Of a DNA stretch of 37,116 nucleotides, positions 86 to 37,116 are shown piece by piece. The stretch lies in the UHGV virus genome UHGV-0272165. One strand, written 5' to 3'. Every line of letters starts with the position of its first letter. Position 1 is the first letter of the stretch. Below the pieces are notes generated by a model. It saw only the letters and a program-made list of their open reading frames with translations. It had not been told where the DNA came from and did not search any database. Source of the stretch: a virus. A program made the translations under genes and the position numbers.

Positions 86-1747
86 TTACCATCCTATAAT
101 GACATCAACACTGCCAACATCAACAGGTGATGGGCTAGTGTTTTGGAATGTAACACGAATCATGTCGTCTGATATTGCCAATACATCAGTTATAACCCCT
201 ATTGGCAGATCTCCTAACACCGTCATATTGATTGGAAGTTCATTTTCTATTTTATATCCAGTAGCTACCCTCTGAATTGAAAATCTAGAGTTTGGATTAA
301 TTGAACCAACATTAATTGTTGATTTAATTTTTTTCCCAGAAAACACGATATCATTGAAATCAACATGAGAGTTATTTATTAGCGAATCGGCAATAGAACC
401 TGAAAAATTGCTATTTATACCTACCTGTCTTAAAACTGAGTGTTTTTCAACCCTTACCCCATAATCCACTTTAGCTAAAGAGGCGTCGATATTATTTATT
501 GCGACAACAGCACCATCGACGCAGTTTATCGCATATTTTGCGCTCCCTAGCATAACAATATTTCTTAATGATAAATATGAGGAAAATTGGCTGGTAGCAA
601 ATGCTGAACCTTCACTTCCAACCATATAACAATCAGATATCTCTACAGATGATGAATAACGAGCCGCTACGCAAGACTGAGTTTTCGGTTTTATAATTGA
701 CAATTCTTTTATATAGCAAGATGAAGCATGCTCAACCTTAATTGAGTCTTCATTTGAATTGTATGATGAAAATGAAAAACCTTTCACGCTAGCTGCGTAA
801 ATACATTCCAGCGAAATATTTGCGTTAGTAATATGAACTTCATTGATACAAAACTGAGATCCAGAGCCAGAAACAAGAACCCCACAGACAGAGCCTCCAT
901 TTACAATTAAATTGTTTGCATCCCAAACTACGCAACTACCACATTGTGAATCAGGGTAGTATCCACCTCCGATAATGAGTCCGTAATCACCATCTGTTTC
1001 AATAGCAACATTTTTTATGCTGTATATATTTGATCTAAATTGTATTCCTTTTGTTGTTTTTATTATGGAATTTATTGGTTTTGCCACAACCCCGTTAACC
1101 GGGCCTGAAATTATACCATTGTGACTCATATCCAATGTTAAAACATTTCCATCCTTGGAAATTATCATCGCTCCACATGAAATGTCTCTCCTGCCAGAAA
1201 GTATACAATATTTACCAACATGAAAATTATCTGCATTCTGAACAGAAACTTTAAAAATACCAGTCAACACATCATAAGAAACATCATATACATTAACAGG
1301 ACTATAATCCACACCCAATATATTCAGAGGAATATTATCAAACTCATCATAATGTGAATAACCATCAGGAATGTGAATATACTGCCCGTATTCTATCTGT
1401 GATCTAAGCTGATCGGGATCGTACTTCAGCACATTAGGAAAATAGAACTGCAGAGCGCCGTACGCATCATAAACAGCCATAGAATGGCCTTGCACAGTTA
1501 CAAATTTGGCAATCTGTCCGTTATATACAGGGTAACCAGCAGCGTTAATGATGATTGGTTGCGAAACAGGAACGTGAGAACAGTCTTCGTTTTCCACATA
1601 AACCTGAATCTGGTTTTCAGGATTTACAGGGTCAGTGTCAATTTTACCGATATAAATTTTTCCATTGGCTACGGCTTTAAAAGAACGAGCCATAGTGAAG
1701 AGTTGCGAAGGCATGCTTACCACAACATTGGCTGTAATGTCTGTCAT
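86..1747 (-). CDS. Tailspike protein: P22 gp9-like N-terminal head-binding domain fused to a different beta-helix-type receptor-binding body
   Basis: N-terminal ~120 aa ([11 protein letters not shown]...[19 protein letters not shown]...[12 protein letters not shown]...NVLKYDPDQ) closely resembles the P22 tailspike N-terminus as I recall it; the remainder does not. Confidence 0.85.
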
Positions 1748-9239: not shown

Positions 9240-10535
9240 TCACGCGGTCTGGTTAGGCAGACCAACACCAATTGCCTCTGGTCGTACAGCACATGCTGAA
9301 TACCACACAGCAATACGGCACTTACCAGACAGAGTGTTGATATCACCCTGCGTTGCGAAGATGCCGTTAACACCAATACCAGGAATGCTGAAGGAAGACG
9401 TTTTCATGCCAGCAAACAGTTCATGGGTTACCGGGATCGGCTGAGACAGCAGGCGGATTGAGTCATCAGCCCAGAACACGTTAGCGGTGGTTGTTGCCAC
9501 GTTCAGAACGTTTACCGGAGTGGAATTAGCAAGAGAGGTGTTTACGTTAGCGTAAGCCTTCTCTTCTTTTGTCAGTGAAGAGTCATCAAGCGCAATCGGC
9601 TTCGGCGTGATTTCGATGTGAGTACCATCGATCACACGGGTGATTGAGAAAGTAGCATCATCAGTCAGCACGTTCTTCGCCATCTGAGACAGGAATTTCA
9701 CACCAGTGAAGCTGATTTTGTCGCCGCGCTTAAACCCGGTGGTGGAGGATACGGTCACCGTTGCAACACGGTTGTCGACGTTCTCTTTGTTACCATCGGT
9801 ATCAAGAGTGTATGCCTGCGGCTTAAACTTCTGCGCACCAGAAACAGTTACACCAGTAGCGGTTGACTTGGTAACTGCCGGAAGTTTCGGTGAGCGAAGA
9901 ATTTCATCAAAGCCAGCAATCTGACGCTGAATAGTACCGTTGCGATACGCTTCTTCAGGAACGCGACCGAAGATGTCACCATCTACCAGGTTGCGGCCTG
10001 CTTTGCGGTAATCGTCAGGGTTCAGGAAGTAACTGATGCCCATATCGCGGTTTAGCTCACGGGAGAACATCAGGCGCTCTGCATCAGACACAAAATCCCA
10101 GCCAGACAGGCCAGTAGATGGACCAATTGCGCGGGTATCGTGAACAACAAGCGAGCCCATTTCAGTTGCCTGTTTGGCAATTGCTGACTCAATGTTATTC
10201 GCCAGTTTTTTGGCGGATGCCTGGATGCGGCGACGGTAAGAACGCTCATCACGCAGGTCATCTGCACGAAGCTCGAAGAAATCGTTATCCGGATCGCCCA
10301 TGTTGCATTTCACGGAGAGTTCCAGAATCCCGGTTGCGTTGCCAGTTAAATCCCAGCCAGTCTGGGTTGGCGCTTCCTGCTCAACAGGCATCCACACGGT
10401 GTTGCTTGAACGCTGCATGGATTCTGCCGGAGGGGTGTATTTTGTCACTTTGGACGCCATTGGCGTCAGGTTCTGGACGGTTTCGATGATTTCATCCAGA
10501 GCATACGTGACCAGTTGACCTTCATTTAATGCCAT
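9240..10535 (-). CDS. Major capsid (coat) protein, P22 gp5 family
   Basis: 431 aa; [20 protein letters not shown]...[14 protein letters not shown]... and C-terminal ...[11 protein letters not shown]...[10 protein letters not shown] closely match remembered P22 coat protein. Confidence 0.95.
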
Positions 10536-16205: not shown

Positions 16206-16937
16206 TTAATCATTTCGTGTCAAAATCGCATCAATCACTGGCTGAATAGGAAACCCGATGCCAATGCCTGGATTTGCATTAGACTCTAATAATTTTACTA
16301 TAGTGGCTAGTGACTCAGCATAGAGTGAATTAATCCTAGCAAAGTCAACACCACCAAACCTCACATTCACTTGCATATTAGCCAACTCCCTCAAGAGATC
16401 TTTGGCCTGATCAGCAATGGCGTCGGCTTCATCTTTGCCAGGGTATCTTCTCTGCGTGACGATACCCACCACATTCCCAGTTTCAAGATTAACGATAGGG
16501 CCGCCAGAATTACCACCATTTACCATCCCATCGATAGAAAATTTTCCATCTTCAAGCGGCGAAGAGACTATTGCTTCGCCTATTAATAATTGAGGAAAAC
16601 CGTGAGGATACCCAGCAAAAATCAATCGTAATCCCCTGGAAGGGGTGAAATTGGTACAAGGTTGCAATACTACTCTGTCGGGAGGTAATGATTCTGAAAT
16701 GCGCATGACAGCAAAATCATATTGAATATCAACATGAATAATCTGGGCCAAAATATTCTGTCCAGATTCAGTTATTAGAGTGGCCGGGCCAAGTATCCGG
16801 CTATTTTGCAGATCAACCAAGGGTTTTACAACGTGAAAGTTTGTGATCACCAAATCCTCTCGTAAAAAACTAAAACCACTTCCGCAAGATGTACCTGCAA
16901 TGACCTGAAATGTTGCATTGGCTAAGTGTTGATGCAT
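16206..16937 (-). CDS. Trypsin-like (S1 family) serine protease, cytoplasmic, no signal peptide
   Basis: His (ITNFHVV), Asp (DFAVMRI) and Ser (GGNSGGPIV) motifs in S1 order; strong SD (GGAGG 7 nt upstream); lower GC than flanking phage genes. Confidence 0.8.
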   Translation of the reverse strand: MHQHLANATFQVIAGTSCGSGFSFLREDLVITNFHVVKPLVDLQNSRILGPATLITESGQNILAQIIHVDIQYDFAVMRISESLPPDRVVLQPCTNFTPSRGLRLIFAGYPHGFPQLLIGEAIVSSPLEDGKFSIDGMVNGGNSGGPIVNLETGNVVGIVTQRRYPGKDEADAIADQAKDLLRELANMQVNVRFGGVDFARINSLYAESLATIVKLLESNANPGIGIGFPIQPVIDAILTRND

Positions 16938-17789: not shown

Positions 17790-18257
17790 TCATCGAAGGC
17801 ATTGCGTCCTGATGTATTCCTGAAGCGTTCTCAGTGCTGTTTGGTCGCGGATAATTCCGTCCCGGATATCGAGAACGTTTCGTCCAGCAACTGGAGAGAG
17901 TTCGACGGTGGCATCATTGCCCATGCCGGAGGCGCTGGAGGTTTTGGCTGAGGATGGCACAGGGCATTTTCCTTTGACGAGCACCCTGCCACCATTATCA
18001 AGCTTGCGCCGAAGAGCATCATTTTCAGCTTTCGCATCAGCTAACTCCTTCGTGTATTTAGCATCGAGTGCATCAGCATCACGCTGGCGCTGTTGCATGT
18101 CAGTAATGGTGGCGTTCGCCTTCTCCAGTTCACTGGCCTTGTTATCGCGCTGTTCTTTGTAGGCGATTGCATTATCACGGTAATGATTAACAGCCCATGA
18201 CAGGCAGACGATGATGCAGATAACCAGAGCGGAGATAATCGCGGTTACTCTGCTCAT
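17790..18257 (-). CDS. Rz: i-spanin Rz
   Basis: N-terminal half near-identical to remembered lambda Rz; overlaps the R stop. Confidence 0.9.
17831..18037 (-). CDS. Rz1: o-spanin Rz1 lipoprotein embedded in Rz (+1 frame)
   Basis: Entirely within Rz; lipobox (VAGC) and Pro-rich segment ([11 protein letters not shown]) like lambda Rz1. Confidence 0.75.
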
Positions 18258-18730
18258 ACCTCAATCTCTCTGACCGTTCCGCCAGCCTCTTTGAATTTTG
18301 CAATCAGACTGTCAGCCTTATGCTCGAACTGACCATAACCAGCGCCCGGCAGTGAAGCCCATATATTGCTGCAACGGTCGATAGCCTGACGGATATCACC
18401 GCGATCAATCATCGGCAAAGCGCCACGCTCCTTAATCTGCTGCAATGCAACAGCATCCTGACTTTTCGGAGAGAAGTCTTTCAGGCCAAGCTGCTTACGG
18501 TAGGCGTCCCACCAACGGGAAAGAAGCTGGTAACGTCCGGCTGCTGTTGATTTGAGTTTTGGGTTTAGCGTGACAAGTTTGCGAGGGTGATCGGAGTAAT
18601 CAGTAAATAGCTCTCCGCCTACAATGACGTCATAACCATGATTTCTGGTTTTCTGCCGTCCGTTATCCGTTCCTTCTGACCACGCCAGCATATCGAGGAA
18701 CGCCTTACGTTGATTATTGATTTCCACCAT
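18254..18730 (-). CDS. R: Endolysin (lambda R-type lytic transglycosylase)
   Basis: 158 aa, [49 protein letters not shown]... essentially lambda R. Confidence 0.95.
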
Positions 18731-19037
18731 CTTCTACTCCGGCTTTTTTAGCAGCGAAGCGTTTGATAAGCGAACCAATCGAGTCAGTACCGATGTAGCC
18801 GATGAACACGCTCGTAATATAAGCGAGATTGCTACTTAGTCCGGCGAAGTCGAGAAGGTCACGAATGAACCAGGCGATAATGGCGCACATCGTTGCGTCG
18901 ATTACTGTTTTTGTAAACGCACCGCCATTATATCTGCCGCGAAGGTACGCCATTGCAAACGCAAGGATTGCCCCGATGCCTTGCTCCTTTGCCGCGAGAA
19001 TGGCGGCTAACAGGTCATGTTTTTCTGGCATCTTCAT
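18714..19037 (-). CDS. S: Holin (lambda S-type)
   Basis: 107 aa, [41 protein letters not shown]... essentially lambda S, with dual-start Met-Lys-Met. Confidence 0.95.
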
Positions 19038-19279
19038 GTCTTACCCCCAATAAGGGGATTTGCTCTATTTAATTAGGAATAAGGTCGATTACTGATAGAA
19101 CAAATCCAGGCTACTGTGTTTAGTAATCAGATTTGTTCGTGACCGATATGCACGGGCAAAACGGCAGGAGGTTGTTAGCGCAGCCTCTTGCCACCCGCTT
19201 TCACGAAGGTCATGTGTAGAAGGCCGCAGCGTAACTATCACTGATGAGTTCAGGATAGCCAGTGGCTACGGCTCAGTTA

Positions 19280-19355
19280 TGGTGCTGGTTAACGGACTTG
19301 AACCGCTACCCATTCGCTTACAAGGCGACTGCTCTACCATTGGAGCTAAACCAGC
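19280..19355 (-). tRNA. tRNA-Thr (anticodon UGU)
   Basis: Hand-folded 76-nt cloverleaf: 7-bp acceptor stem GCTGGTT/AACCAGC, D-arm GCTC/GAGC, anticodon loop CUUGUAA, T-arm AGCGG-TTCAAGT-CCGTT, encoded CCA. Confidence 0.7.
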
Positions 19356-19360
19356 ATATT

Positions 19361-19435
19361 TGGCGGGACAGCGTGGACTCGAACCACGATAAGAAGGTTA
19401 ACAGCCTTCCGTAATGACCTTTATACGACTGACCC
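19361..19435 (-). tRNA. tRNA-Asn (anticodon GUU), possibly slightly degenerate
   Basis: Hand-folded 75 nt: anticodon stem GAAGG/CCTTC, loop CUGUUAA, T-arm CGTGG-TTCGAGT-CCACG, encoded CCA; acceptor stem has one U-U mismatch and the D-stem is only 3 bp. Confidence 0.55.
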
Positions 19436-19500
19436 AAATAAAAAATCCCGAAACCGTTGTGCAGGCTCTAACTATTACCTGCGAACTGTTTCGGGATTGC
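19436..19500 (-). terminator. tR'-like intrinsic terminator of the late leader
   Basis: AATCCCGAAAC ... GTTTCGGGATT stem followed by TTTTTTATTT on the minus strand; matches remembered lambda tR'. Confidence 0.6.
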
Positions 19501-19638
19501 ATTTTGCAGACCTCTCAGCCTGCGATGGTTGGAGTTCCAGACGATACGTCGAAGTGACCAACTAGGCGGAATCGGTAGTAAGCGCCGCCTCTTTTCATCT
19601 CAATACCACAACGAGCGAATTAACCCATCGTTGGGTCA

Positions 19639-19667
19639 AATTTACCCAACTTTATTCAAAAAGTCAA
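19639..19667 (-). promoter_or_regulatory. pR'-like late promoter (start of the Q-antiterminated transcript)
   Basis: Minus-strand TTGACT-17 nt-TAAATT just downstream of Q; context matches remembered lambda pR'. Confidence 0.5.
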
Positions 19668-19709
19668 TATTATGCCGTTAATATGTTGCCATCCGTGGCA
19701 ATCATGCTG

Positions 19710-20333
19710 TTAACGTGTGACCGCATTCAAAATGTTGTCTGCGATTGACTCTTCTTTGTGGCATTGCACCACCAGAGCGTCATACAGCGGCTTAACAGTG
19801 CGTGACCAGGTGGGTTGGGTAAGATTTGGGATTAGCATCGTCACAGCGCGATATGCGGCGCTTGCTGGCATCCTTGAATAGCCGACACCTTTGCATCTTC
19901 CGCATTCTTTCTCAACAACTCTCCCCCACTGCTCTGTTTTTGCTATATCAACCGCACGGCCTGTACCGTGACAATCTCTGCATCTTGCGCCCGGCGTCGC
20001 GGCACTACGGCAATAATCCGCATAAGCGAATGTTGCGAGCACTTGCAGTACCTTTGCCTTAGTATTTCCTTCGAGCTTTGCCACACCACGGTATTTCCCC
20101 GATACCTTGTGTGCAAATTGCATCAGATAGTTGATAGCCTTTTGTTTGTCGTTCTGGCTGAGTTCATGCTTACCGCAGAATGCAGCCATACCGAATCCGG
20201 CTTGTGATTGCGCCATCCCCATAGCAGCCATCACATCAGTACCGGAAAGAGAGTCAGAAGCCGTGGCCCGTGGTGAGTCACTCATCATCGGGCTTTTTGG
20301 CGAATGAAATTTAGCTACGCTTTCGAGTCTCAT
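19710..20333 (-). CDS. Q: Late antiterminator Q (lambda-type)
   Basis: 207 aa; [89 protein letters not shown]... matches remembered lambda Q. Confidence 0.95.
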
Positions 20334-29965: not shown

Positions 29966-30102
29966 CCATTAATCACCAGATGCTTCGTGCTGCACAAAAC
30001 AAAGCAGTAATAGCCCGATTTATTGGTGATTCCAAAATGTGGCTTGAAGCAAATAAAGCGATGAAATCAGCTATCAACCTTCCGTGGTATCGCAGGAAAT
30101 GA
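29950..30102 (+). CDS. Hypothetical small protein (50 aa)
   Basis: GGAGG SD then ATG; hand-translated; below the 60-aa track cutoff. Confidence 0.3.
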   Translation: MRNEIAINHQMLRAAQNKAVIARFIGDSKMWLEANKAMKSAINLPWYRRK

Positions 30103-30177
30103 GTTTTACAGATAACTGGTCAGACGAAGAATTCATTCGTCAGATGAAAGAATTAATCGGTAACGAAGGAGATATTC

Positions 30178-30348
30178 ATGTCACTTGCAACCACAGTGAA
30201 GGAGAGCAAGTTACAGAGACGCATGTACACGCAGCAGGCGTTAATGTATCGCCAGAAGGGAGATCGTGAAGGTGTTCGCGTATTTTTAAATGCGGCAAAG
30301 ACTGAAGTATTAAATCAGCGTTATTTCCTTGGGCCATGTCCATTCTGA
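30178..30348 (+). CDS. Hypothetical small protein (56 aa)
   Basis: Strong SD (AAGGAG, 7-nt spacer); alternative to the out-of-frame ORF 30084..30269. Confidence 0.4.
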   Translation: MSLATTVKESKLQRRMYTQQALMYRQKGDREGVRVFLNAAKTEVLNQRYFLGPCPF

Positions 30349-31593: not shown

Positions 31594-31890
31594 ATGCCAG
31601 CGCCTCTGTATGGTGCGGACGACGCGCGCCGCTGTTCCGGCAATTCCGTATCGGAGGTGCTGGATAAATTCAGAAAAAACTACGACCTGATAATGTCGCT
31701 ACCGCAGGAAACGAAAGAGGAAAAGGAATTTCGCCATTGTATATGGCTTGCAGAGAAAGAAGAACGCGAGCGAATTTACCAGACATCAATCCGACCATTC
31801 CGCAAAGCCACATATACCCACTTCCCTGAATATATCGATCCGCGCCTGCGTAATTACCGCTCACGCTATGGCGCTATCAGTAATGACTGA
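31594..31890 (+). CDS. Hypothetical protein (98 aa)
   Basis: ORF with SD (AGGAGAAAA) directly after ssb. Confidence 0.5.
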
Positions 31891-35138: not shown

Positions 35139-35339
35139 ATGCAACACGAACTACAGCCTGATTCACTGGTTGATTTGAAATTCATCATGGCTGATACTGG
35201 CTTCGGTAAAACCTTCATCTATGACCGGATTAAGTCCGGCGACCTGCCAAAAGCCAAAGTTATCCACGGGCGAGCAAGATGGTTATATCGTGACCATTGT
35301 GAATTCAAAAATAAGCTCTTAAGCCGCGCCAATGGGTAA
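35139..35339 (+). CDS. AlpA/Xis-family small DNA-binding protein (putative excisionase)
   Basis: 66 aa with AlpA-like pattern (TGFGKTFIYDRIKSGDLPKAKVIHGRARWLYRD); last phage-like gene before the att-like sequence. Confidence 0.55.
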   Translation: MQHELQPDSLVDLKFIMADTGFGKTFIYDRIKSGDLPKAKVIHGRARWLYRDHCEFKNKLLSRANG

Positions 35340-35412
35340 AATAGCGGGTAAAATATTTCTCACATCTAAAAAATACCATTCCAATCAATCCCCTGCCGCT
35401 TCAAGTAGATGT

Positions 35413-35427
35413 CTGCAGGGGACACCA
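35413..35427 (+). other. tRNA 3'-end-like core (CTGCAGGGGACACCA); probable prophage-host junction
   Basis: 15-mer matching the 3' end of tRNA-Arg (argW) from memory, with no upstream tRNA body; phage-like sequence to the left, host-like to the right. Confidence 0.45.
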
Positions 35428-35868
35428 GATACCCTTCTAACAATATCTACCTTCGCCCCGTAAAAGATGGGTTTGGCAGCACACTTGCCCTATATCTACT
35501 CATTTTTACTGCAACAGGTTGAAATCTCAGCACTGTCAGAAAGCGCTGATGACTAAACAGCCCTGGGCCGGGCGATGTAACCATCACACAGAATCCTGAT
35601 AGCGAAATATGGCGTGACTCGATACTTCACTCTGCAATGCATTCCTTGATGAATTCGCAGGCCCGTGATACACGGGACAGGTCGCTGAATGACGACAATG
35701 TCCTGGAAATCAGCGAACCGCGTATCCGGAGTACATTTGAGCGACTGTACCAGAACATGAATGAGGCGTTTGGATTAGGTGATTATTAGTTGGGCTAAGC
35801 ATTTTAGTATTATTATTTTCCGGTTGAGGGATATGGAGATATCGACAACAACCGGAAAAAGTTTACGT

Positions 35869-37116
35869 CTATATTGCTGAAGGTACAGGCGTTTCCATCA
35901 CTATTTGCTCGCGTTTTTTACTCAGGAAGAAAATGCCAAATAGCAACATCAGGCAGACAATACCCGAAATTGCGAAGAAAACTGTCTGGTAGCCTGCGTG
36001 GTCAAAGAGTATCCCAGTCGGCGTTGAAAGCAGCACAATCCCAAGCGAACTGGCAATTTGAAAACCAATCAGAAAGATCGTCGACGACAGGCGCTTATCA
36101 AAGTTTGCCACGCTGTATTTGAAGACGGATATGACACAAAGTGGAACCTCAATGGCATGTAACAGCTTCACTAATGAAATAATCCAGGGGTTAACGAACA
36201 GCGCGCAGGAAAGGATACGCAACGCCATAATCACAACACCGATAAGTAATGCATTTTTTGGCCCTACCCGATTCACAAAGAAAGGAATAATCGCCATGCA
36301 CAGCGCTTCGAGTACCACCTGGAATGAGTTGAGATAACCATACAGGCGCGTTCCTACATCGTGTGATTCGAATAAACCTGCATAAAAGACAGGAAAGAAT
36401 TGTTGATCAAAAATGTTATAGAAAGACCACGTCCCCACAATAAATATGACGAAAACCCAGAAGTTTCGATCCTTGAAAACTGCGATAAAATCCTCTTTTT
36501 TTACCCCTCCCGCATCCGCCGCTATGCACTGGTGATCCTTATCTTTAAAACGCATGTTGATCATCATAAATACAGCGCCAAATAGCGAGACCAACCAGAA
36601 GTTGATATGGGGACTGATACTAAAAAATATACCGGCAAAGAACGCGCCAATAGCATAGCCAAAAGATCCCCAGGCGCGCGCTGTTCCATATTCGAAATGA
36701 AAATTTCGCGCCATTTTTTCAGTGAAGCTGTCAAGCAAACCGCAGCCCGCCAGATAACCCAGACCAAAAAAGAGCGCACCCAGAATTAGACCTACAGAAA
36801 AATTGCTTTGCAGTAACGGTTCATAAACGTAAATCATAAACGGTCCAGTCAAGACCAGAATGAAACTCATACACCAGATGAGCGGTTTCTTCAGACCGAG
36901 TTTATCCTGAACGATGCCGTAGAACATCATAAATAGAATGCTGGTAAACTGGTTGACCGAGTAAAGTGTACCTAATTCCGTCCCTGTTAATCCTAGATGT
37001 CCTTTCAGCCAAATAGCGTATAATGACCACCACAGCGACCAGGAAATAAAAAAGAGAAATGAGTAACTGGATGCCAAACGATAGTACGCATTTCTGAATG
37101 GAATATTCAGTGCCAT
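35869..37116 (-). CDS. cscB: LacY-family (oligosaccharide:H+ symporter) MFS sugar permease, probably sucrose permease CscB
   Basis: 415 aa, 12 hydrophobic segments; strong resemblance to LacY (GTRLYGYLNSFQ, NRVGPKNALL); N-terminus MALNIPFRNAYYR matches my recollection of CscB. Confidence 0.7.
   Translation of the reverse strand: MALNIPFRNAYYRLASSYSFLFFISWSLWWSLYAIWLKGHLGLTGTELGTLYSVNQFTSILFMMFYGIVQDKLGLKKPLIWCMSFILVLTGPFMIYVYEPLLQSNFSVGLILGALFFGLGYLAGCGLLDSFTEKMARNFHFEYGTARAWGSFGYAIGAFFAGIFFSISPHINFWLVSLFGAVFMMINMRFKDKDHQCIAADAGGVKKEDFIAVFKDRNFWVFVIFIVGTWSFYNIFDQQFFPVFYAGLFESHDVGTRLYGYLNSFQVVLEALCMAIIPFFVNRVGPKNALLIGVVIMALRILSCALFVNPWIISLVKLLHAIEVPLCVISVFKYSVANFDKRLSSTIFLIGFQIASSLGIVLLSTPTGILFDHAGYQTVFFAISGIVCLMLLFGIFFLSKKREQIVMETPVPSAI

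Follow-up and report, generated by a model that had tools for sequence, protein, structure and literature searches.

The DNA analysed here, a window of 37,116 nucleotides from the virus genome UHGV-0272165, carries a pair of tRNA genes in its lambda-type late leader, one for tRNA-Asn(GUU) and one for tRNA-Thr(UGU). This cassette is already known, with annotations that go back to phage 21 and Sf6; it is the familiar pair that lies just after the late-gene terminator in many lambda- and P22-like phages. It is probably a mobile cassette of the phage 21/Sf6 type whose functional tRNAs serve as nuclease-resistant replacements for host tRNAs destroyed by the Toprim anticodon-stem nucleases of prophages and satellites, with the supply of a decoder for ACA as a secondary benefit.

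In the direction of transcription the region reads Q, pR′, tR′, tRNA-Asn, a 5-nt spacer, tRNA-Thr, a leader of 242 nt and then S, which is the first late gene downstream of the cassette (Table 1). A lambda-like layout, with pR′ hexamers and a tR′ hairpin between Q and S, had been described in an initial annotation of this DNA, and a promoter scan, an RNA fold and the alignment with lambda all agree with that description. The site aligned with pR′ is labelled "similar to lambda PR'" in the HK446 record. The tR′ hairpin has a predicted folding energy of −29.6 kcal/mol (z = −4.9), and none of 200 shuffled sequences folds as well; the leader that ends in it is of the 6S type. It had also been remarked that the tRNAs abut the T-tract of tR′, and tRNA-Asn does begin 4–6 nt after the T run.

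Table 1. Features of the late leader, its neighbouring genes and the Gp33 homologue, with positions in the window
Feature	Position	Strand	Description and evidence
Late antiterminator Q, lambda type, 207 aa	19710..20333	-	ORF; Pfam Antiterm 1.3e-57; DNA ~97% identical to lambda Q
pR′ late promoter, TTGACT-17-TAAATT	19639..19667	-	Promoter scan; matched in alignment by pR′ of lambda and of HK446
tR′ terminator, long hairpin AAUCCCGAAAC...GGUUUCGGGAUU then UUUUUUAUUU	19436..19498	-	RNA fold; nearly identical to lambda tR′
tRNA-Asn(GUU)	19361..19435	-	75 nt, CCA encoded, G73 discriminator; ARAGORN and Rfam
5-nt spacer between tRNA-Asn and tRNA-Thr	19356..19360	-	AAUAU (AACAU in phage 21); alignment
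tRNA-Thr(UGU)	19280..19355	-	76 nt, CCA encoded, G1-C72, C2-G71, A73; ARAGORN and Rfam
Lambda-like untranslated leader, cassette to S	19038..19279	-	Alignments; first ~62 nt accompany the cassette in phage 21
Holin S, 107 aa	18714..19037	-	ORF; aligned position is holin/anti-holin in lambda, HK446 and Kapi1
R	18254..18730	-	ORF
Rz	17790..18257	-	ORF
Gp33 homologue	30099..30266	+	tblastn, 96% identity over 56 aa to HK446/HK75 Gp33

Two other parts of the window deserve mention. A gene for a 243-aa trypsin-like serine peptidase (Pfam Trypsin_2, 5e-18) occupies a moron-like position (16206..16937, minus strand), flanked by the lysis genes on one side and the small-terminase region on the other. 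PADLOC matches it weakly (1e-12) to the RT-Protease_XI protease domain, and it could be a cargo or defence gene. At the right end, an ORF for a TorI-type excisionase (35139..35339) adjoins a host gene for a LacY-family oligosaccharide MFS transporter (35869..37116), and no integrase lies between the two within 35139..37116. About 179 E. coli genomes have the same TorI/MFS junction, so what is seen here is the end of a KplE1/Sf6-type prophage; loss of an integrase by deletion was rejected on that ground. In prophages of the KplE1 type the integrase is presumably at the opposite end.

ARAGORN finds just two tRNAs in the 37-kb window, both encoded on the minus strand, a point on which the initial annotation had been silent. 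Its assignment of a Thr-UGU and an Asn-GUU gene is borne out: the program that it had proposed as a check accepts both structures, and so does Rfam RF00005 (gathering score 29), with 61.5 bits (E = 4e-11) for tRNA-Thr and 55.3 bits (E = 2e-9) for tRNA-Asn. The anticodon arm of tRNA-Asn is GAAGG-CUGUUAA-CCUUC, with a full stem of 5 bp, and that of tRNA-Thr is GUCGC-CUUGUAA-GCGAA, in which the uppermost position of the stem is a mismatch, G27·A43, and 4 bp remain. This mismatch, seen in the cmscan alignment, was absent from the initial annotation. The acceptor-stem mismatch and short D-stem which the latter had noted in tRNA-Asn appear in the same alignment as U4·U69 and as U13·U22 closing the D stem.

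The functional elements of both tRNAs are intact. Each anticodon loop, CUGUUAA in tRNA-Asn and CUUGUAA in tRNA-Thr, has 7 nt, with U33 and a purine at position 37; each D loop contains GG (G18G19), and the T loops, UUCGAGU and UUCAAGU, conform to UUCRANU. The 3′ CCA can be read from the sequence of both genes. Asparaginyl-tRNA synthetase (AsnRS) recognizes G34, U35 and U36 together with G73, and threonyl-tRNA synthetase (ThrRS) recognizes G1-C72, C2-G71, G35 and U36. All of these identity elements are present in the respective tRNAs. The ORFs that overlap the tRNAs are short, at 47–50 aa, and lend no support to a protein-coding use.

The cassette occurs in at least 56 phage records. As a unit of 176 bp it is 98–100% identical in at least 40 phage records, in many of which a tRNA-Asn and a tRNA-Thr are annotated; carriers include HK446, Kapi1, mEp506, phage 21, Sf6, SfI, BTP1, SPN9CC and Oslo. 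Of 5426 complete E. coli genomes, 369 contain it, with both tRNAs annotated by PGAP. The mature tRNAs of the window are 100% identical to those of phage 21, Sf6, HK446 and Kapi1, its tRNA-Asn is also 100% identical to that of phage L, and the identity to the HK446 cassette is 100% over all 176 nt. The same tRNA genes have been noted in Sf6, ST64T, PS3 and p21 in work on SfI (PMC3636060), and tRNAs at the late-leader position have been reported in some P22-like phages, though not in P22 itself, in work on phage L (PMC8022706).

In phage 21, Sf6, SfI, HK446, Kapi1 and BTP1, as in the window, the order is Asn, a 5-nt spacer and Thr; the cassette, which lies between Q and the holin gene, begins directly behind the tR′ T-tract, and the same tail of about 62 nt follows tRNA-Thr. 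The sequence that the window has in common with phage 21 and Sf6 begins in the terminator T-tract and ends about 62 nt past tRNA-Thr, and within the cassette these two phages differ from the window by one spacer base. The surroundings are of two kinds: the window, HK446 and Kapi1 have Q, pR′ and tR′ of the lambda type, whereas phage 21, Sf6 and L are of the Q21 type.

The tRNAs had initially been described as inserted into the leader. They do lie directly downstream of tR′, but they replace other sequence there and leave the leader uninterrupted. On either side of the cassette the flanking sequence shares about 97% identity with the 6S RNA/tR′ leader region of lambda, and this agreement takes in pR′, the qut region, tR′ and the leader as far as S. 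The 158-bp cassette, by contrast, stands in place of 162 bp of unrelated lambda sequence, from 'GGGATTTTTTAT' to 'AACTGAGCCGTAGCC'. Phage IME10, to which the late genes of the prophage are most closely related (identity of 96% across 71% of the first 25 kb), has a third and longer filler at the same place, of about 300 bp, the first 90 bp or so of which match lambda while the rest is unrelated. Since lambda, IME10 and the window carry different content there, the stretch from the tR′ T-tract to 'AACTGAGCCGTAGCC' is a variable slot. An insertion that interrupts the leader was discarded as an explanation, the alignment with lambda and IME10 showing a like-for-like replacement after tR′. The idea of a hidden RNA in the two other fillers was likewise dropped: ARAGORN finds no tRNA in either, and a search of Rfam at E ≤ 1 gave no family match, only a chance snoRNA hit.

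The Stx-converting lambdoid phages such as 933W carry the tRNA genes ileZ-argN-argO downstream of Q and pR′, and these are usually explained by the supply of rare codons. They resemble the cassette in their late-leader position, between Q and the first late genes; unlike the cassette they have anticodons for rare Ile and Arg codons, and the sequences are unrelated. Homologues of the cassette genes are part of longer Q-to-holin arrays, Asn-Phe-Thr in Tbat2_3 and Asn-Phe-Thr-Arg(UCU) in lambdoid phages of Klebsiella. In phage JLK-2012 (positions 991..1144 of the locus that we numbered L007) the slot holds Asn, a chimeric Thr(UGU) and Gly(UCC). The chimera joins the 5′ half of the cassette tRNA to an anticodon arm like that of host thrU with G42U and U43C, has an anticodon stem of 3 bp, has lost CNG from its 3′ strand, and scores 49 bits in Rfam with no call by ARAGORN. 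Gly(UCC) is another preferred target of the P2 OLD nuclease (bioRxiv 10.64898/2026.07.10.737580). In phage L (991..1062 of locus L006), and also in ST64T, PS3 and ST160, the second tRNA lacks 4 nt and its anticodon loop is truncated. This tRNA scores 42 bits in Rfam and is not called by ARAGORN; it is annotated as 'Leu(TAA)' in the phage L record and is probably decaying.

Eight distinct variants of tRNA-Thr and seven of tRNA-Asn, from phages and prophages of Escherichia, Salmonella and Klebsiella, were compared, and in this small and closely related sample every substitution in a stem keeps the pairing. Compensatory pairs occur at 3-70, 5-68 and 6-67 in tRNA-Thr, with 95% of cells paired, and at 6-67, 7-66 and 28-42 in tRNA-Asn, with 91% paired (standard tRNA numbering; in the 75-nt tRNA-Asn the computed columns of the 3′ acceptor strand are one lower). 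In control structures, with the 3′ partners slid by 1–3 columns, 21–54% of cells were paired. None of the eight variants changes the anticodon arm of tRNA-Thr, G27·A43 included; in tRNA-Asn, U13·U22 is conserved and U4·U69 is kept in six of seven, with U·G in Oslo. Both tRNAs thus look functional, as far as comparison of sequences can tell, the compensatory changes being supporting evidence rather than proof. The scores from Rfam and ARAGORN, together with the compensatory changes and the integrity of the functional elements, led us to reject a pseudogene or a chance cloverleaf.

The suggestion in the initial annotation that tRNA-Asn may be non-functional finds no support. The gene is 100% identical across phages with lambda-type and with Q21-type Q and tR′, the Klebsiella variants show compensatory changes in its stems, and it has the GUU anticodon and G73. 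It is still 100% identical in phage L and ST64T, where the neighbouring tRNA has decayed, which argues that tRNA-Asn is selected in its own right.

As possible purposes of the tRNAs, codon bias and tRNA-targeting nucleases had both been named at the outset, and these are the two that are discussed in the literature. The evidence for nuclease evasion comes from P2 OLD, a nuclease whose lethal action is the cleavage of host tRNA-ThrU at paired CNG motifs, nt 28–30 and 40–42 (PMC12445682). Phage tRNA-Thr(UGU) genes rescue cells from OLD; the tRNA-Thr of phage 21 protects and resists cleavage, which was put down to its shorter anticodon stem and changed base pairs, and C28U/G42A in thrU was tested as a base-pair substitution that alters CNG (PMC12445682). 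The tRNA-Thr(UGU) of HK446 also gives strong counter-defence against OLD when supplied in trans (bioRxiv 10.64898/2026.07.10.737580). The window tRNA-Thr has the same sequence as these tested tRNAs of phage 21 and HK446, and its anticodon is that of the primary OLD target, tRNA-Thr(UGU). The rescues in trans imply that a tRNA-Thr of this sequence works in decoding.

The two tRNAs differ considerably from their host counterparts in E. coli, with 62% identity between tRNA-Asn and asnT and 71% between tRNA-Thr and thrU. Both features associated with resistance to OLD, an altered paired CNG and a shortened anticodon stem, are found in tRNA-Thr, which has the mismatch at 27·43, U28-A42, and UCG/CGA where the host has CUG/CAG. 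In tRNA-Asn only the CNG is altered, to AAG/CUU from CGG/CCG in the host, while the stem keeps its 5 bp; in the Klebsiella variants of tRNA-Asn, C28-G42 restores a paired CAG/CUG motif. The absence of so short a motif as CNG is weak evidence when taken alone, and tRNA-Asn is not among the preferred targets of OLD (bioRxiv 10.64898/2026.07.10.737580).

A different reading is that the RNAs matter for their tRNA-like shape, as processing or stability elements at which RNase P would part the 6S-like leader from the lysis and structural mRNA, or that they are decaying passengers. Either possibility would suit a cassette at the very beginning of the late mRNA, in a slot that accepts unrelated fillers, and the decay of the second tRNA in phage L and ST64T. 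We nevertheless regard this reading as very unlikely, given that nothing is missing from the anticodon loops, the identity elements or the CCA, that all four stems are preserved by compensatory substitutions, and that lambda and IME10 manage without a structured RNA at the slot. Moreover, the identical tRNA-Thr of phage 21 and HK446 rescued OLD-restricted cells or phages (PMC12445682; bioRxiv 10.64898/2026.07.10.737580), and the rescue by a different phage tRNA-Thr was lost once its UGU anticodon was changed (PMC12445682).

Replacement of cleaved host tRNAs, the reading preferred here, has precedents in virulent phages. The resistant tRNAs of T5, T4 and Bas32/33 neutralize PARIS AriB, P2 OLD and the retron Eco7 PtuAB; like those of the window, they combine the anticodon of the host target with an altered anticodon stem, and T5 carries variants of both Thr(UGU) and Asn(GUU) that are changed at positions 39–42. 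The differences are also clear. Those phages are virulent, have arrays of about 25 genes and use their own early or middle promoters, whereas the window belongs to a temperate phage with a two-gene cassette that depends on late antitermination and is not accompanied by tRNA-Lys(UUU).

PARIS AriB cuts between nt 40 and 41 in the context U36-A-A-U39-C40, and escape of T5 from PARIS needs its variants of all three AriB-target tRNAs, the Lys variant being required (PMC12409363). At positions 39 and 41 the window tRNA-Thr has G39 and G41 where the host has U39 and A41, and tRNA-Asn has C39 and U41 where the host has U39 and C41. Around the 40|41 site this gives UAAGCG in tRNA-Thr and UAACCU in tRNA-Asn, compared with UAAUCA and UAAUCC in the host. 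The cassette could contribute to escape from PARIS. It could not suffice alone, because the Lys variant is required (PMC12409363) and ARAGORN finds no tRNA-Lys in the 37-kb window, which holds only the Thr and Asn members of a T5-type anti-PARIS set.

The other purpose under discussion involves no nuclease: additional decoders, above all for ACA, whose decoder is scarce and encoded by a single-copy gene, would speed the synthesis of late proteins. ACA makes up 27% of the Thr codons (14.2 per thousand) in the late genes of the window and 32% (15.7 per thousand) in its early genes. In E. coli overall it accounts for roughly 13% of Thr codons, or about 7 per thousand, and the use of ACA in the window is about twice that average. 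SfI has the same bias, 17.3 versus 7.1 in the units of the paper (PMC3636060). For Asn, AAC accounts for 24 of the 25 codons in the coat gene of phage L (PMC8022706), and the coat ORF of the window (9240..10535) has 22 AAC and 3 AAU. Transcription together with the late genes would also suit the supply of codons.

Codon supplementation is inessential, however, since IME10, with late genes that are 96% identical, and lambda both do without the cassette. In coat, the gene with the highest expression, ACA is nearly absent, at 3 of 41 Thr codons, and E. coli has several tRNA-Asn genes of its own. A bias in Asn codons was not found by the authors of the SfI study (PMC3636060). Nor does codon supply account for the identity of only 62–71% to the host tRNAs, or for a mismatched Thr anticodon arm that does not vary among the eight variants. 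The excess of ACA itself fits codon supplementation and vulnerability to the loss of ThrU equally well. As the whole explanation, codon supply seems to us rather unlikely; as a secondary benefit, compatible with nuclease-resistant replacement tRNAs, an improved decoding of ACA would fit a phage rich in this codon.

It has further been suggested, for HK446, that such tRNAs compensate for a host tRNA gene disrupted by integration of the prophage (bioRxiv 10.64898/2026.07.10.737580). Relatives do integrate into tRNA genes, thrW in the case of HK446 and of SfI (PMC3636060 for SfI). But thrW encodes Thr(CGU), and the cassette Thr(UGU) and Asn(GUU); the target tRNA is normally made whole again by attP, of which phage L and P22 provide examples (PMC8022706); and the cassette is found with different integration modules. 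It should also be nearly silent in a lysogen, because it lies behind tR′ and Q is needed for its transcription. Compensation of this kind is highly improbable.

How the cassette would be expressed is suggested by its position. Because it lies directly behind tR′, it would be transcribed only when RNA polymerase modified by Q reads through the terminator, and it would then be the first part of the abundant late transcript past tR′. RNase P, together with trimming of the 3′ ends to the encoded CCA, would release the tRNAs, which would stand in for host tRNAs cut during infection. Control by Q is favoured by the lack of room for a separate promoter in the 4–6 nt between the T-tract and tRNA-Asn. 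The scan found no promoter other than pR′ in 18950–19800, and an independent tRNA promoter was accordingly rejected.

The cassette may be of benefit in this native position, although the published rescues from OLD used tRNA supplied in trans from plasmids (PMC12445682; bioRxiv 10.64898/2026.07.10.737580). One consideration against such a benefit is that early proteins which use ACA must be made before the late tRNA appears; Q, which is made before the cassette transcript, has 4 ACA codons. HK446 escapes OLD but also has Oad2, an inhibitor of OLD, and the authors are not convinced that it relies chiefly on the tRNA against this nuclease (bioRxiv 10.64898/2026.07.10.737580).

The prophage of the window has a homologue of Gp33, which in HK75 and HK446 is a small early protein reported to trigger P2 OLD (bioRxiv 10.64898/2026.07.10.737580). 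No homologue of Oad2 (HK446 gp27) was detected, tblastn giving no match in the window better than E = 0.38. The early-left operon with Gp33 and the stretch 31594..31890 (plus strand) also has a P22-type Abc2 anti-RecBCD protein, Erf and SSB, and the prophage has Kil and CIII as well.

The tRNA-Asn may have a role equivalent to that of tRNA-Thr, against OLD or PARIS AriB, but the case for it is weaker than the case for tRNA-Thr. A broader proposal, which we put forward tentatively and hold to be possible though on balance doubtful, is that Asn-Thr is a co-selected kit directed against both OLD and PARIS AriB of P2-type prophages and satellites, that tRNA-Asn too is resistant to cleavage, and that in prophages with Gp33 and without Oad2 the kit is the sole anti-OLD device and works from its native late position.

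The cassette is already known, and its tRNA-Thr has been put to the test against OLD before; in itself the finding contributes little. The prophage is nevertheless a natural test case, with a lambda-type leader, Gp33, no Oad2 and a resistant tRNA-Thr. It could reveal whether a late tRNA that depends on Q is sufficient against a tRNase that causes abortive infection, and what purpose is served by the conserved partner, tRNA-Asn.
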